Positions 58,312 to 64,000 of a stretch of 64,000 nt of DNA are shown piece after piece. A program made the position numbers and the translations under genes. Each line of letters opens with the position of its first letter. The stretch's first letter is position 1. Source of the stretch: a virus; the IMG/VR virus record IMGVR_UViG_3300027541_000218, positions 9,824-73,823 of that record, one strand, 5' to 3'. Under the pieces are notes generated by a model, which made no database searches, was not told the origin of the DNA, and worked only from the letters and a program-made list of their open reading frames with translations.

Positions 58312-59303
58312 TATAAAACTCCTGGAGTGCCAAAGTTTGTTATGTATTTCTGTAGAATTTTATCTACTAATATATTTCCAGTGCCTTCTAACGCAGACTT
58401 ATCAATTTGAATTTTATATTGATCAGTAGAGTAGTTAGTAATATACCTCTTATGGTATTCCATCTTACCGCACTTGATATCTTCAATTAACATTTTTGTA
58501 GCATCTTGAATTTCATATGGAACAACCTTATAGCCAGTTTCTAAATGAAATAGATAATTAAATGTTACTGGAAATGTTACTCCAGGTGCGACTGCTAAAG
58601 TTACTGTGCTATCTTCTGTATCATAAAGATAGATTGAGTCTGATTCTCCAAGTGGAACTCCTTTTGGTGTTCCTATTTGACGAATATATGATTGATCGCC
58701 CATCTGGGTCCACTCTTTAAGAATGGATGTTTTATCTTTGCTAAGTAGATAAATCCATTGGCTATCGTTTTGTGTTTGTGGGGTAGCATCATAATCCCAA
58801 ACAAGTTGATTATTTTCGTATGCTTTTAAAATTGTGTATGTTCTGTCCCAAATAGGCATGTAATCTGATCCATTACCATTTGTTTCATACCAAGAGCGCT
58901 CATAATAAAATCCGCCAGGTACTATAGAGTCAATAATTGCTCTTGCTATATTTTCCCACTCTGTATAGTTTGCAATATCTGTTGCTGTTCCATCTGCATT
59001 GGTCTGAGCCAATCTAATTGGATTAACATATGGTCTAGCAATATCTAGATTGTCTTCTACTACAATTTCTGCCTGTTCCCCATCAACAATAGAATAAATT
59101 GCTAAATAGTATGACTCATCATACGAGTTAAACATATTAGAAAGAGTATAACTAATTTGAGCATTGGCATCTGATGTTATATTTTCTTCTACTTCATTAA
59201 CATTTCTTGTACCCTGATTAATAATTAATAGATACTCTGTATTAGCATCTGGCACATCATATGTGATGGTCAGTGGGTATGGGGGTAAACGTAGAATCTG
59301 CAT
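58311..59303 (-). CDS. Head-tail adaptor
   Basis: GYKVVPYEIQDATKML, TGNILVDKILQKY. Confidence 0.65.
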   Translation of the reverse strand: MQILRLPPYPLTITYDVPDANTEYLLIINQGTRNVNEVEENITSDANAQISYTLSNMFNSYDESYYLAIYSIVDGEQAEIVVEDNLDIARPYVNPIRLAQTNADGTATDIANYTEWENIARAIIDSIVPGGFYYERSWYETNGNGSDYMPIWDRTYTILKAYENNQLVWDYDATPQTQNDSQWIYLLSKDKTSILKEWTQMGDQSYIRQIGTPKGVPLGESDSIYLYDTEDSTVTLAVAPGVTFPVTFNYLFHLETGYKVVPYEIQDATKMLIEDIKCGKMEYHKRYITNYSTDQYKIQIDKSALEGTGNILVDKILQKYITNFGTPGVL

Positions 59304-59659
59304 TAGATCTTACCGTAGTGTTTGGCTACCTCTGCTGGAGTTGCTTCACGAACAGATTTCTTGGTAAGCCACTTTACGGATGCCTCCTTTGTGACAATAT
59401 TATATCCTTTTTCAAGGCTACCCACACCGTTCCAATAAATGTTTCCTTTTGAGAAAAGTGCTACCTTTTCTTTTGGAGTCATTGCTGCTGCTTTTCTTTC
59501 TTCTTCATCTTGTCTAGGAACAAAAGGAAGAATTGCCTCTAACAATTCCTGCTTTGTAGTTGCTCCAAGAGTATCAATTTTGTTCTTTTTTGCATATGAC
59601 TTTAATTCAAGAACAGTTTTCTTTGAAAATTCTTCTACTACTTCTTTTGTTGTTGCCAT
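59303..59659 (-). CDS. Head-associated protein with Rho-N/HeH-like domain
   Basis: TVLELKSYAKKNKI...TKQELLEAI. Confidence 0.6.
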   Translation of the reverse strand: MATTKEVVEEFSKKTVLELKSYAKKNKIDTLGATTKQELLEAILPFVPRQDEEERKAAAMTPKEKVALFSKGNIYWNGVGSLEKGYNIVTKEASVKWLTKKSVREATPAEVAKHYGKI

Positions 59660-59689
59660 AAATCCTCCACTGCTATTATATCAGAATTA

Positions 59690-59914
59690 CTATTTTCTAC
59701 TTGCTCTTAATGTTTGTGGTTTTCTTATTCCTGCTGGAGTACCAGATATTGTTATATTTTCACCAAATATAGGTGTTGGAATATTACCTAATACATTTGT
59801 TTGCATAATCATACCTTGTGGACCCATTACCATTACCCCACCAACTCCACCTACTGCAATTGCTCCATCGCCATCGTGTTGATGTGAGACTGTTGGATTT
59901 CCTGGATATGACAT
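59690..59914 (-). CDS. Stand-alone paralog of the major capsid N-terminal arm
   Basis: YPGNPTVSHQHDGDGA versus MCP YPGSPTVSHNHQGDGA. Confidence 0.8.
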   Translation of the reverse strand: MSYPGNPTVSHQHDGDGAIAVGGVGGVMVMGPQGMIMQTNVLGNIPTPIFGENITISGTPAGIRKPQTLRASRK

Positions 59915-59929
59915 TTTATTTCCTTAAGT

Positions 59930-59967
59930 GATAAGGGAGGACAGATTTTTTGTCTGCCCTCCCTATC
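59930..59967 (-). terminator. Hairpin after the major capsid gene
   Basis: GGGAGG...CAGA/TCTG...CCTCCC stem. Confidence 0.65.
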
Positions 59968-59985
59968 GGTTAGTTTTTTAAACTA

Positions 59986-61125
59986 TTATGCGGTTGGATC
60001 AACTGCTGCATCTGCGTAAGCAACTGCATCAAGTTCTTCCCATTGAATACCAAAGCGTACAAAGACGGTATACTCAATTGTATCCTTCTTTGGCTTGTAT
60101 TCACGGTTTACAGTGATATCACGCTGGAAACCCCATACACGGTTTGCAGGGAATGTCAAGTCGACATAATCTGCTGGGTAGTAAGGAACTTCCATAACAT
60201 CCACTCCGAGAACACGAGTTGTACGTGCTCCACCGAATGTCTGTCCCATACCATCAAGATAGTCTTGACGGTTACGCTCTGTACCACCAGTACGTGGAGC
60301 AAATGCTTCAGCAATAGCGTCAGCGAGTGTTCCGTTGTTCTTAACAATACCTGCGAATGCATCAGTACCTGCGTAGAACTTTAGGTTCTGCTTTAGGGCA
60401 CGATACTTACGTGGCATTGCAAGGATAATGTCCTGCATTACCTCTGTAGTCCAGTTGTCATCTGTAACTGTAACGGCTGCTTCGTGAGCATCTCCGTCAT
60501 TTTCAACTTTGTGAACGAAACCTTCCATGATTGAAAGGAAGTCGCCAGTTGAACCATCACCGTTGATAGCGAGGTCTTCGATATCGTTAGCGAATGCGTT
60601 TGTCATCAAGCGAACTAGATGATCTTCAAGCGCACCACCTTCAATATTGTCTTCAAGTGCTTCAGTTGAAACTTCCCAATCAAGACGAATCTTCTTGGTT
60701 GTGAGTTCTACCTTAGTAAATGTAGCACCAGCGTTTGTATAATTGTTGTTTGCCTGTGCAGCAGCACGAATTACACGTTCACCCACGTTAACTTTTTCAA
60801 GTTCCATGGTGTTTGCTCGCATAGTAACTCTACGACCATCTTTGGCGAGAACTGTTGCATCCCACACATAGTCGATGAAGCGGCGAGCCTGCTCTGGAAG
60901 GAGAATACCTCCTGGTGTACCAGTTGGATTAACTGCGTTTGGACCAGAAGTTACACCCCATTCAGGAGTAGCAATGTTACCCAAGTTTGCACCAATATCA
61001 GATGTGGATGGGTTGGTTGCTGTTGCACCACCGATATCACCTGAAGCGAAAGCACCATCACCTTGGTGGTTGTGCGATACTGTTGGAGAACCTGGATAGT
61101 TCTTTACGATTTCTTGTTCCGACAT
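59986..61125 (-). CDS. Major capsid protein (HK97 fold)
   Basis: GGILLPEQARRFID, EALEDNIEG, EDLAINGD; AGGAGG SD; follows protease-scaffold. Confidence 0.92.
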   Translation of the reverse strand: MSEQEIVKNYPGSPTVSHNHQGDGAFASGDIGGATATNPSTSDIGANLGNIATPEWGVTSGPNAVNPTGTPGGILLPEQARRFIDYVWDATVLAKDGRRVTMRANTMELEKVNVGERVIRAAAQANNNYTNAGATFTKVELTTKKIRLDWEVSTEALEDNIEGGALEDHLVRLMTNAFANDIEDLAINGDGSTGDFLSIMEGFVHKVENDGDAHEAAVTVTDDNWTTEVMQDIILAMPRKYRALKQNLKFYAGTDAFAGIVKNNGTLADAIAEAFAPRTGGTERNRQDYLDGMGQTFGGARTTRVLGVDVMEVPYYPADYVDLTFPANRVWGFQRDITVNREYKPKKDTIEYTVFVRFGIQWEELDAVAYADAAVDPTA

Positions 61126-61152
61126 ATTGTTCACCTCCTAAGTGAATATACC

Positions 61153-62475
61153 TTAACTAAATAGGTCGGCATTTGTGAGGAAACGACCGCCCCATAGGGA
61201 TTTTTGAACCTGACGTACAGGTTCCTGCACGATCTCGCCTAGATCGCCAGACTTGCGGAAAGCAGTATCTTTTTCTACAAGATCTACTCGCTTTCCAAAC
61301 TCATTAAAAGTGCTCTTTACTTGGCTTACCTCACTTGCTACAGACTTTACTTCGCCTGTAACTGTTTCAAGAGACTTTGTAATTGCTTCAACATTGGCTT
61401 GCATAGCCTTTACTGTATCAGCAAGATTGCTCAAGGCATTAGTTAGAGAGTTATTAATTTCTTCCACAGACTTTGCAACTTCTGCTGTTGCATTAACAAC
61501 TGCTTCTACTGCATCATCTGCTTCTTCAGCAACAGGAGCGTCTGCAACAACTGCATCTGCTTCTGCCACTGCCTCTGCTACTGGCTCTTCCGCTGCTGCT
61601 TCTTCAGCAACAACTTCAGTAGCCTCTGCTACAGCATTATCTGCTGGAGCCTCGGGAGCAACCTCAACATTTTCAACTTTTGTTGCATCTGCGACAACTA
61701 GTGTCTCTTCTGCAATAACAGTTTCTTCTGTCATAGGATTTTCCTCCTTTGTAATCTTAATTGTCCTAATGCCTTTTGCACTATCAACTAAGAACTTTAC
61801 GGTATCAATATCATTCTGATCTTCAACAAAGCCAATGTTTTTCATTGACCCGCTGCATGTTGGACATGATTCATCAGATTCTTTAGAGAGTCTTACAATA
61901 TCATCAGTGTTGCACCAATAAACTGTATCAACTACAGTCTTTGCAAGGAATCCACCAATTTGTCCCTTTTCAATAGAAACAACATTAGCAAATTGATTTG
62001 CAGGATTATCTACAAGAGATAATTCATGCAATTCATATTCCTTAACAATTCTTATTGCCTTTTCTAGTTCTTCATCGTAAGAGTCCATTGACTTTGTAAT
62101 ATTCCCTCCGATAGAAAAACCAGTTAGTGTGCCATCAAGAACTTTTTCCCAAGTATCTTGTGCACCCTTTGAAACATATGCAGAAACATAAACACCGCTA
62201 TAAAAGTTTTTTGACTTTGGATCAAAATAACGATCTTCCTTAAATGAAACTACTTTGCCTACTGCTGTAGGTTGATGCATTTCACGTAAGTTACCACGGA
62301 ATTTCTTAAATGCTTCAAGGCTGGCTTCTGTTGTAACAATGTCGTTTTGCTTATCAATATTATCTAGTGTCGCAAAGCCAGAAACAATTCTGCGTTCTTT
62401 GTCGACTTTTCCGATAGGCATCGAAAAGCGAACATTGTCGCCATCAGTAGTCCAGTGTGCTTTATTTATAGTCAT
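61153..62475 (-). CDS. Prohead protease fused to acidic/coiled-coil scaffold
   Basis: REMH, GFSIGG, ELSLVDNPAN; Glu/Ala-rich C-half. Confidence 0.9.
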   Translation of the reverse strand: MTINKAHWTTDGDNVRFSMPIGKVDKERRIVSGFATLDNIDKQNDIVTTEASLEAFKKFRGNLREMHQPTAVGKVVSFKEDRYFDPKSKNFYSGVYVSAYVSKGAQDTWEKVLDGTLTGFSIGGNITKSMDSYDEELEKAIRIVKEYELHELSLVDNPANQFANVVSIEKGQIGGFLAKTVVDTVYWCNTDDIVRLSKESDESCPTCSGSMKNIGFVEDQNDIDTVKFLVDSAKGIRTIKITKEENPMTEETVIAEETLVVADATKVENVEVAPEAPADNAVAEATEVVAEEAAAEEPVAEAVAEADAVVADAPVAEEADDAVEAVVNATAEVAKSVEEINNSLTNALSNLADTVKAMQANVEAITKSLETVTGEVKSVASEVSQVKSTFNEFGKRVDLVEKDTAFRKSGDLGEIVQEPVRQVQKSLWGGRFLTNADLFS

Positions 62476-62516: not shown

Positions 62517-64000
62517 TTATTGAGACGCTCTACCTTCACCTTGTGGATTTCTTCCATCAATGGTTGCAGGAGAGTCAGATACGTTATTTGCTCTTTCGGC
62601 ATCTCTTTCACGGTTACCCGCTAAATTTGCACGAGCATCTGTTGCTTGTCTTGGAGTCATAGTAAATGGAGTGCTACCGTCACCGTCTGGTCTTGGTGGC
62701 AAATCTAACATTTCACGAGCCTCGTCAGGCGTAATAACCTGAGTCTTGACATATCTTTCAATAATTTGAGACTGAGCAATTTCATCCGTTAAGGTCATTT
62801 CATTAAACTTTAACTGAAGAATATCTGTTTTTTCTTTAATAATCTTATTGACCATTTTTTCAAGTTGTGCTTGTGCTGGTCTAGCAACCTGTTCTTTAAA
62901 TGTTCTATCTTGAGACATTGCTGCAGCAATAGCAGCAGAATCTGAACCTCCAAGTTTAGAAATAGGAACTTGGTGTGCTACAAGAATATCATCACGGTTT
63001 TGTTTACGATATTTTTCAAACGATGCTTCTTGTACAGAAGTCTCAACTGGATCCATCTTAAACTCAACCTTATTGTTGTCAGTATCTCCAGGAAGTGGGA
63101 TATATAGGGTTCTATGGTTCTGACCCTTTAGACCTGTCTGCAAGAATCTAAACATCTTATCTTCTGCGTCTGCAGAAAGTTTGGCACCTTTGACCGTAAT
63201 GATATAACGTGGTGCACCCTTGTTTTGGAAATAATCAATATTATATTGAGCAGCCAAAGAGTCTCCAATAAGAGAAGAAACTGCAGAAATAATATCTGGA
63301 ATTCCATAATAGGTGTTTAAAGGAGAATACTCTTTGATATGAATAATTTCATTTGGACGTGTATCTGTAGTCATTGGGTTTGGATTAGTTGCTCCAAAAT
63401 TACGGAAATAAACAACCTTCTGTCCAATGATCTGAACAAATCCATCACGAAGACGGCGTACACGAATAGTTGTAGATGGAATATGTCCTACATATCCAAT
63501 CTCTCCAGATACTGTTCTTCCTATTTCTAAAAAGCCATTACCTGTAGCCTGAAGATCTGTATAAATTTTTTCCATTGTATTTGTAAATGAATCATCATCA
63601 TTAAGTGACTCTAGCCACTCACGAATTTCTAGTTTCATTCTTTCAATACGACGACGTGCTCTATCTACCGCTCCTGAATCACCATTAGTTTCAAAGCGAA
63701 GCATTGTGCGGTCTGTAATATCAAAACGATATCCAAGACCAACAACATTTTCTACTTTAGCATCAATGGCTGCGTGATTGGCAAAAGATGTATCATAATA
63801 ACTTGCTAACTCATACATGTTGTATGGTGGTGTAATTACATCAAATAGTCCATAACCATTTCGGTATACCGTTCCAGGATTAATCTGCTTAGAACCACTA
63901 CCGTCTTGTCCCATTGGAATAGCGTTAGCATTTTCCAAATAACGGGCTGTTGGTTCTACCGCATTGTATCCGTAAACCTTAGAAACATTTCTTGTAGTTC
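62517..64000 (-). CDS. Portal protein (5' end beyond window)
   Basis: TGNGFLE, YYGIPD, FQNKGAP, ITPDEAREML; frame open to the window edge. Confidence 0.92.
   Translation of the reverse strand, partial: TTRNVSKVYGYNAVEPTARYLENANAIPMGQDGSGSKQINPGTVYRNGYGLFDVITPPYNMYELASYYDTSFANHAAIDAKVENVVGLGYRFDITDRTMLRFETNGDSGAVDRARRRIERMKLEIREWLESLNDDDSFTNTMEKIYTDLQATGNGFLEIGRTVSGEIGYVGHIPSTTIRVRRLRDGFVQIIGQKVVYFRNFGATNPNPMTTDTRPNEIIHIKEYSPLNTYYGIPDIISAVSSLIGDSLAAQYNIDYFQNKGAPRYIITVKGAKLSADAEDKMFRFLQTGLKGQNHRTLYIPLPGDTDNNKVEFKMDPVETSVQEASFEKYRKQNRDDILVAHQVPISKLGGSDSAAIAAAMSQDRTFKEQVARPAQAQLEKMVNKIIKEKTDILQLKFNEMTLTDEIAQSQIIERYVKTQVITPDEAREMLDLPPRPDGDGSTPFTMTPRQATDARANLAGNRERDAERANNVSDSPATIDGRNPQGEGRASQ

Follow-up and report, generated by a model that had tools for sequence, protein, structure and literature searches.

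We found that the 74-aa open reading frame that follows the major capsid protein (MCP) gene of this phage, called S here, is a true gene and a true paralog of the N-terminal segment of the MCP, and that it is selectively maintained. The protein may best be understood as an accessory component of head assembly that would be sub-stoichiometric to the MCP, remain associated with the head and mimic the capsid arm by using the arm contacts. We give this reading a probability of about 45%. The window, i.e., the whole stretch of 64,000 nucleotides that was analysed, is part of an IMG/VR record of 73.8 kb, which is estimated to be 71% complete; complete genomes of relatives are about 101–114 kb long.

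S is located on the minus strand at 59690..59914, begins with ATG and is a paralog of the N-terminal extension of the MCP that stands as a gene of its own. An AAGGA Shine-Dalgarno sequence was read from the sequence 6 nt 5' of this ATG (59921..59925, minus strand), and sites of the AAGGA/TAGGAG type also precede S in the relatives displayed. Using BLASTP, we aligned residues 2–70 of S with residues 12–84 of the MCP in GTG numbering (residues 9–81 when counted from ATG); 33 of 74 positions were identical (45%), with an E value of 1e-15. This confirms the alignment with MCP residues ~10–80 that was claimed in the preliminary description, and the motifs quoted there (YPGnPTVSHqHdGDGA, LGNIpTP and GTPaGI) were all found in S. 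When the record itself was searched with S by tblastn, the same two places were returned, namely S and the start of the MCP. The anchor motifs kept in S are YPG, HxH-x-GDG, LGNI-T-x-FG and GTPxGI-x-P. Across relatives, S and the MCP extension have in common YPG, G-x-G-A, LG-x-I, F/W-G and GTP-x-GI-x-P; the shared motifs were present in all 41 aligned genome pairs and also in a wider set.

The head module of the window runs on the minus strand and begins with the portal gene (62517–63938). It is followed by the upstream neighbour of the MCP gene (61153..62475; PF04586/PF14550, phrog_9427), whose product is a prohead protease with an acidic, scaffold-like part fused to it at the C-terminal end. 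The MCP gene (59986..61125, minus strand; 379 aa) encodes a protein of the HK97 fold and the XkdG/PF05065 type, with matches to PF05065 and phrog_1623. Then come S, the gene of a 118-aa protein with a Rho_N/SAP-like N-terminus (59303..59659, minus strand) and further head-tail genes. S is thus encoded within the head module, with the MCP gene on one side and the head-tail genes on the other. As for the start of the MCP, the most likely codon is the ATG at 61125, which has AGGAGG 7 nt before it. The GTG at 61134, which opens the longest ORF (59986–61134), is not the likely start and sits within this AGGAGG ribosome-binding site.

According to the alignment with S, the copied N-terminal extension (residues 9–81) is encoded by 60883..61101 of the MCP gene, on the minus strand. 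The HK97 body (A and P domains) is absent from S, and PF05065 in the MCP begins after the shared part; the PF05065 and phrog_1623 matches begin only at about residue 73–75. The nearest named MCPs are those of Streptomyces phages (Stanwilliamsviridae) and of the Rhodococcus phage Weasels2, with 38–43% identity. They align from residue 72 onward only and have ~19 residues before that point, as does the Circinus MCP. Since the named MCPs start aligning at residue 72, the copied segment is an extension of ~50 residues specific to the freshwater group and not the classical N-arm alone. In a profile search, all 120 longer matches listed were proteins of 358–396 aa with the segment at the start, nearly all of them with PF05065, and among the matches listed the segment occurred at MCP N-termini or as free S only. 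In one contig (L166:3497-5699), two overlapping tandem MCP-like ORFs of 373 and 388 aa lie ahead of S. This is either a tandem duplication of the MCP or an assembly artefact caused by a mixture of strains.

S and the arm also begin at the same place. S opens with M-S-YPG, and the corresponding part of the MCP reads ...IVK-N-YPG. The Lys before the arm was invariant in 61 MCPs, and the leader preceding it varied both in length and in sequence. The C-terminal peptide of the protease-scaffold protein, DTAFRKSGDLGEIVQE...(Q/H)K-SLWGGRFL...DLF, is near-invariant across relatives and has a Lys just before SLWGGRFL. In HK97, a lysine precedes the mature part of the MCP. The invariant Lys and the conserved K-SLWGGRFL are consistent with a putative processing site after IVK.

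S differs in three ways, which are the lack of the HK97 body, a more hydrophobic middle and an Arg/Lys tail. The best 19-residue hydropathy was 1.34 in the middle of S and 0.56 in the MCP extension, and the mean net charge was +4.3 for the last 14 residues of S and −3.8 for the extension. In the window, the basic tail at the C-terminus of S is RKPQTLRASRK. We also considered S as a membrane protein and rejected this, as family members have best 19-residue hydropathy values between 0.72 and 1.87, which are not consistently in the transmembrane range. Many S variants (e.g., L056:4508-4720, L072:3440-3664 and L076:6001-6225) carry two cysteines, in G-x-G-C-I-A and G-C-I-P, besides HxH. These residues could form a metal site of the His2Cys2 type in those variants; the S of the window has neither cysteine.

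S had no match in Pfam or PHROGs, decoration and scaffold families included, and tblastn found no homolog of S in named phages. Sequence searches of the PDB with the MCP and S profiles gave no matches. In a search of a representative library, the FG-GAP repeat proteins P0018 and P0022 were taken as chance matches due to repeats or composition and were rejected as relatives of S; otherwise, only small relatives and MCP fragments were returned. The best score in the ESM Atlas was 0.85, which is below the lead level. The composition of S is Gly/Pro-rich. An AF2 model of S built on an alignment of 50 rows reached a pLDDT of 46 with short strands only, and a model of the MCP built on 61 rows reached a mean pLDDT of 36; both alignments were low in diversity, and both models are unusable. 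Prediction of the MCP and S complex gave a score of 0.00, which is no verdict and counts as evidence for neither side.

In order to compare S across relatives, we scanned IMG/VR with the S alignment. Of the 119 relatives that this yielded, we fetched 80, and S was extracted in 79 loci. It turned out that S always begins with ATG and MSYPG in these loci and is 69–75 aa long, save for one copy clipped by a contig end. Across all loci bearing S, its length is 69–92 aa, the start is fixed and the frame is always intact. The distance from the MCP stop codon to S is 63–71 nt in the 79 loci, and the gene order (protease, MCP, S, Rho_N-like gene, 330-aa gene) is constant. Distant forms of S, of ~80 aa, keep a six-residue SGPNAVNP-like stretch that is lost in the window type, and at their end QNNF precedes an Arg run. 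The preliminary description had proposed pairwise alignment and dN/dS across related phages as a check. The pairwise dN/dS is lowest in the MCP body (0.09), intermediate in the MCP extension (0.16) and highest in S (about 0.26), so S is conserved under purifying selection. Although S is constrained, its rate of evolution exceeds that of the MCP.

A tree of 73 unique S and 101 unique MCP extensions splits cleanly into the two groups with a support of 0.988. Therefore, S arose once, by partial duplication of the MCP. The longest nucleotide tract common to S and the MCP gene has a mean length of 9.0 nt within the same genome and 9.4 nt between different genomes, which rules out recent gene conversion as the source of the shared motifs. 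Thus, these motifs are maintained by selection on both copies. Fusion of the MCP with S by read-through or frameshift was also ruled out, given the gap of 63–71 nt and the lack of a fixed frame between the two genes.

We then determined how S is distributed. The MCP gene was complete in 177 of the fetched loci; of these, S was present in 115 and absent in 59, and 3 were not classifiable. The loci without S have enough downstream sequence to judge; the sample is biased by fetching, and these numbers are counts, not frequencies. In all 115 S-bearing loci, S is intact and lies in the same slot. The 59 S-less relatives have very similar MCPs in which the arm is still present, and S-bearing and S-less clades interleave in the MCP tree. 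Two S-less genomes of 114 kb and 109 kb are rated 100% complete, and in them the S profile matches the MCP extension alone. Since 59 relatives, including two complete genomes, lack S, it is dispensable. Many close relatives build their heads without it; therefore, any structural contribution of S is optional. The preliminary description had named absence or decay of the ORF in relatives as grounds for giving up a capsid role. Absence was indeed found, in these 59 relatives, and decay was not, as S is never decayed where it is present.

The sequence around S suggests how its expression may be limited. A GC-rich hairpin with an 11-bp stem and a 7-nt loop lies just 3' of the MCP stop codon (59935..59963, minus strand). 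Its folding energy is −25.5 kcal/mol, with z −6.3 compared to shuffles, so the hairpin that had been noticed near 59930–59967 is real. All lineages have a hairpin 3' of the MCP stop codon, whether or not they carry S. For 8 of 10 pairs, comparison of 40 related loci revealed changes on both sides that preserve the pairing. At one stem position, the mRNA has a G-U pair where the opposite strand would have an A-C mismatch, which fits a function of the hairpin in the mRNA. A scan of the window for intrinsic terminators did not call this hairpin; the T-run is weak and the tail is UUAUCACUU. Of the features of an intrinsic terminator, the GC-rich stem is present in the window and a U-tract directly 3' of the stem is absent. 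The U-tract is better in some relatives, e.g., UUUUCU in L001. The hairpin is a candidate for a terminator-like attenuator or for a 3' stabiliser of the MCP mRNA.

The sequence TGATATAAT, an extended −10-like promoter motif, is located at 59675..59683 on the minus strand, between the stop codon of S and the next gene. It occurs nine times in the window, at sites between 16503 and 59683, always on the minus strand, which is the coding strand; 2.1 occurrences are expected, and none of 100 shuffles reached nine. Apparently, this is the likely extended −10 promoter motif of the phage. The general form TGnTAnAAT was present within 80 nt 3' of S in 114 of 115 loci, and it was found between the MCP gene and S in none of the 115. 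In S-less genomes, it lies directly 3' of the hairpin (58 of 59), and the Rho_N/SAP-like gene comes directly after the hairpin and the promoter motif. Because S has its own ribosome-binding site, a hairpin upstream and no such motif upstream, transcripts that continue past the hairpin are probably the only source of the protein. Judging from the gene layout, the level of S is most likely much lower than that of the MCP. The suggestion that the hairpin keeps S scarce is therefore plausible, given the compensatory changes in the hairpin and the absence of a promoter-like motif from the stretch separating S from the MCP gene in all 115 loci.

Three metatranscriptome libraries of riverine origin contain contigs that cover S and extend across the hairpin; these indicate presence only, and library DNA is a possible source. 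In the RNA libraries, the depth of the MCP contigs was about 350–450 and that of the S contig was 15–31, although contig depths cannot rank genes. Contig depth across the region in a DNA run was flat, at about 15–17. One contig of a DNA run and one of an RNA library join 59687 to 60004 and omit S, the hairpin and the 3' end of the MCP gene. The shorter side of this junction has 25 letters only, and the junction may represent a co-occurring S-less relative that shares the promoter region.

We also assessed whether S and the arm change together. Among unique pairs of arm and S, the HxH motif near the start was present in both members of 68 pairs and absent from both in 10, with no discordant pair. 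Since S is monophyletic, this concordance represents a parallel change in two paralogs. At the same time, the pairs without HxH form a single basal clade, so it amounts essentially to one coordinated event. Among crown lineages, HxH was lost from the MCP in three of five S-less lineages and in none of four S-bearing ones. This pattern is suggestive only.

The position of S in the head module, its anchor motifs, its coupling to the arm, its probably low expression and its dispensability together fit best with an accessory, sub-stoichiometric role in the head. The following course of events may be proposed. Duplication of the MCP part that encodes the extra N-terminal segment produced S once. 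Transcripts reading through the hairpin would yield far less S than MCP. The protein could then enter the assembling head via the contacts of the MCP extension, whose partners may be other arms, the shell or the scaffold. As a low-copy mimic of the arm, it may tune the assembly or the stability of the head, and it may either remain in the particle or have a transient role. In HK97-fold proteins, the N-termini are found on the inner face. Since they face inward, our guess is that S is inside the head, probably on its inner face, and that its basic tail points to DNA or to acidic partners. S would be helpful, not required. The contacts of N-arms are treated in bioRxiv 10.1101/2022.09.09.507160.

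It is also conceivable, although we consider it unlikely, that S regulates assembly from outside the mature virion as a transient occupant of the arm site on the MCP or the scaffold. In this role, it would govern nucleation or timing as a chaperone or competitor and would later be released or degraded by the prohead protease. The paralogy of S and the arm with their conserved motifs, the low-level layout behind the hairpin and the dispensability of S are all compatible with this, and the basic tail of S could be matched by the acidic arm and the acidic linker of the scaffold. However, when we compared the C-terminal peptide of the protease-scaffold protein in genomes with and without S, there was no difference, i.e., the scaffold peptide carries no change matching the presence of S.

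The preliminary description proposed another role, in which S supplies an N-arm in trans at sites left vacant by symmetry, for example at the portal vertex. Pentons would be further sites of this kind, and S would make the sets of arms complete, possibly around a metal ion bound by HxH. HxH motifs bind metal in trimeric phage fibres. S retains the anchor motifs and the starting point of the arm, HxH is concordant between the two, and the gene layout suggests that S is scarce. Nevertheless, S-less relatives have arm-bearing MCPs, some of which keep HxH, and complete genomes are among them; a filler required by the geometry of the lattice should not be dispensable. In addition, S has a hydrophobic middle and a basic tail, unlike the arm, so it is not a simple replacement arm. 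The filling of arms at the portal vertex is thus not supported by the 59 S-less relatives that keep the arm, two of them with complete genomes, and we regard supply of an arm in trans as improbable.

Even less probable is that S serves as a decoy, which imitates the N-terminal segment of the MCP and soaks up or misleads an immune sensor of the host. Major capsid proteins are known triggers of several bacterial defence systems. Such a role would agree with the patchy, accessory-like occurrence of S, which is gained or lost among near-identical phages, with its faster evolution compared to the MCP and with the fact that S follows the motif state of the arm. Yet S belongs to the late head operon and follows a hairpin, an arrangement that fits neither early nor abundant expression; its middle is systematically unlike the arm, and no defence or anti-defence family was matched in the Pfam and PHROGs searches. 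Finally, a functionless relic of the partial MCP duplication, or an ORF translated only for the expression of the downstream genes, might explain why S is often absent and has no family match, but it is very improbable given that S is intact with a fixed start and 69–92 aa in every bearing locus, has a dN/dS of 0.26 and keeps its motifs despite the old split from the arm, and that the next gene has its own promoter-like motif.

A head-associated arm mimic can be compared with several known systems. Decoration or cement proteins (lambda gpD, T4 Soc, phage L Dec, P74-26 Dec) are small, encoded in the head module and often dispensable, and they bind the MCP lattice (PMC7602432). S is likewise small, accessory, dispensable and encoded in the head module, and it may be located in the capsid. 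None of the decoration proteins copies a part of the MCP, as S does, and S matches no decoration family. The vertex protein gp24 of T4 is a paralog of the MCP gp23 that arose by duplication, is used at special sites and can be bypassed. In contrast to S, which copies the N-terminal extension without the HK97 body, gp24 is a full-length copy of the HK97 fold.

The delta domain of HK97 is an N-terminal extension of the MCP that can also take the form of a free protein, and its N-terminus points into the procapsid. Delta domains and separate scaffolds are either fused or free, whereas here fused and free forms occur in one genome, and a scaffold-like domain is already present on the protease. Furthermore, the delta domain is helical, and the S segment is Gly/Pro-rich, its weak AF2 models having short strands only. 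The tail chaperones G/GT and the T7 proteins 10A/10B are short and long products with a common N-terminus, made by programmed frameshifting and identical in the shared sequence. S and the MCP also form a short and long pair that shares an N-terminal part. Unlike these pairs, S is a separate old gene, is 45% identical and has no fixed frame to the MCP. To our knowledge, a free-standing copy of the capsid N-terminal extension alone has not been described as a class of head protein, and we found no family or paper on such an arm copy in the literature searched.

Phages of this group abound in lakes and rivers, as more than 3,300 MCP relatives were scored in one search. None of them has been cultured, and no solved structure matches the MCP by sequence. 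Near-identical phage contigs (L231–L239) have been binned into unrelated MAGs (Actinomycetota, Flavobacterium, Polynucleobacter, Methylococcus, Aquiluna and others). Binning across so many phyla is evidently mis-binning, and therefore we made no host assignment from these contigs. If S joins the head, it would represent a new route to capsid accessory proteins, in which an arm is copied instead of a foreign fold being recruited. In that case, the S-bearing and S-less genomes would be a natural pair for probing the function of such extensions. In some S-less relatives (L218–L222 and L229; e.g., L219:3794-4114), the slot of S is occupied by a different small gene, whose product of 102–106 aa is a paralog of the Rho_N-like protein's C-terminal half. 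This position between the MCP and Rho_N-like genes is a hot spot for small accessory genes that arise by partial duplication.
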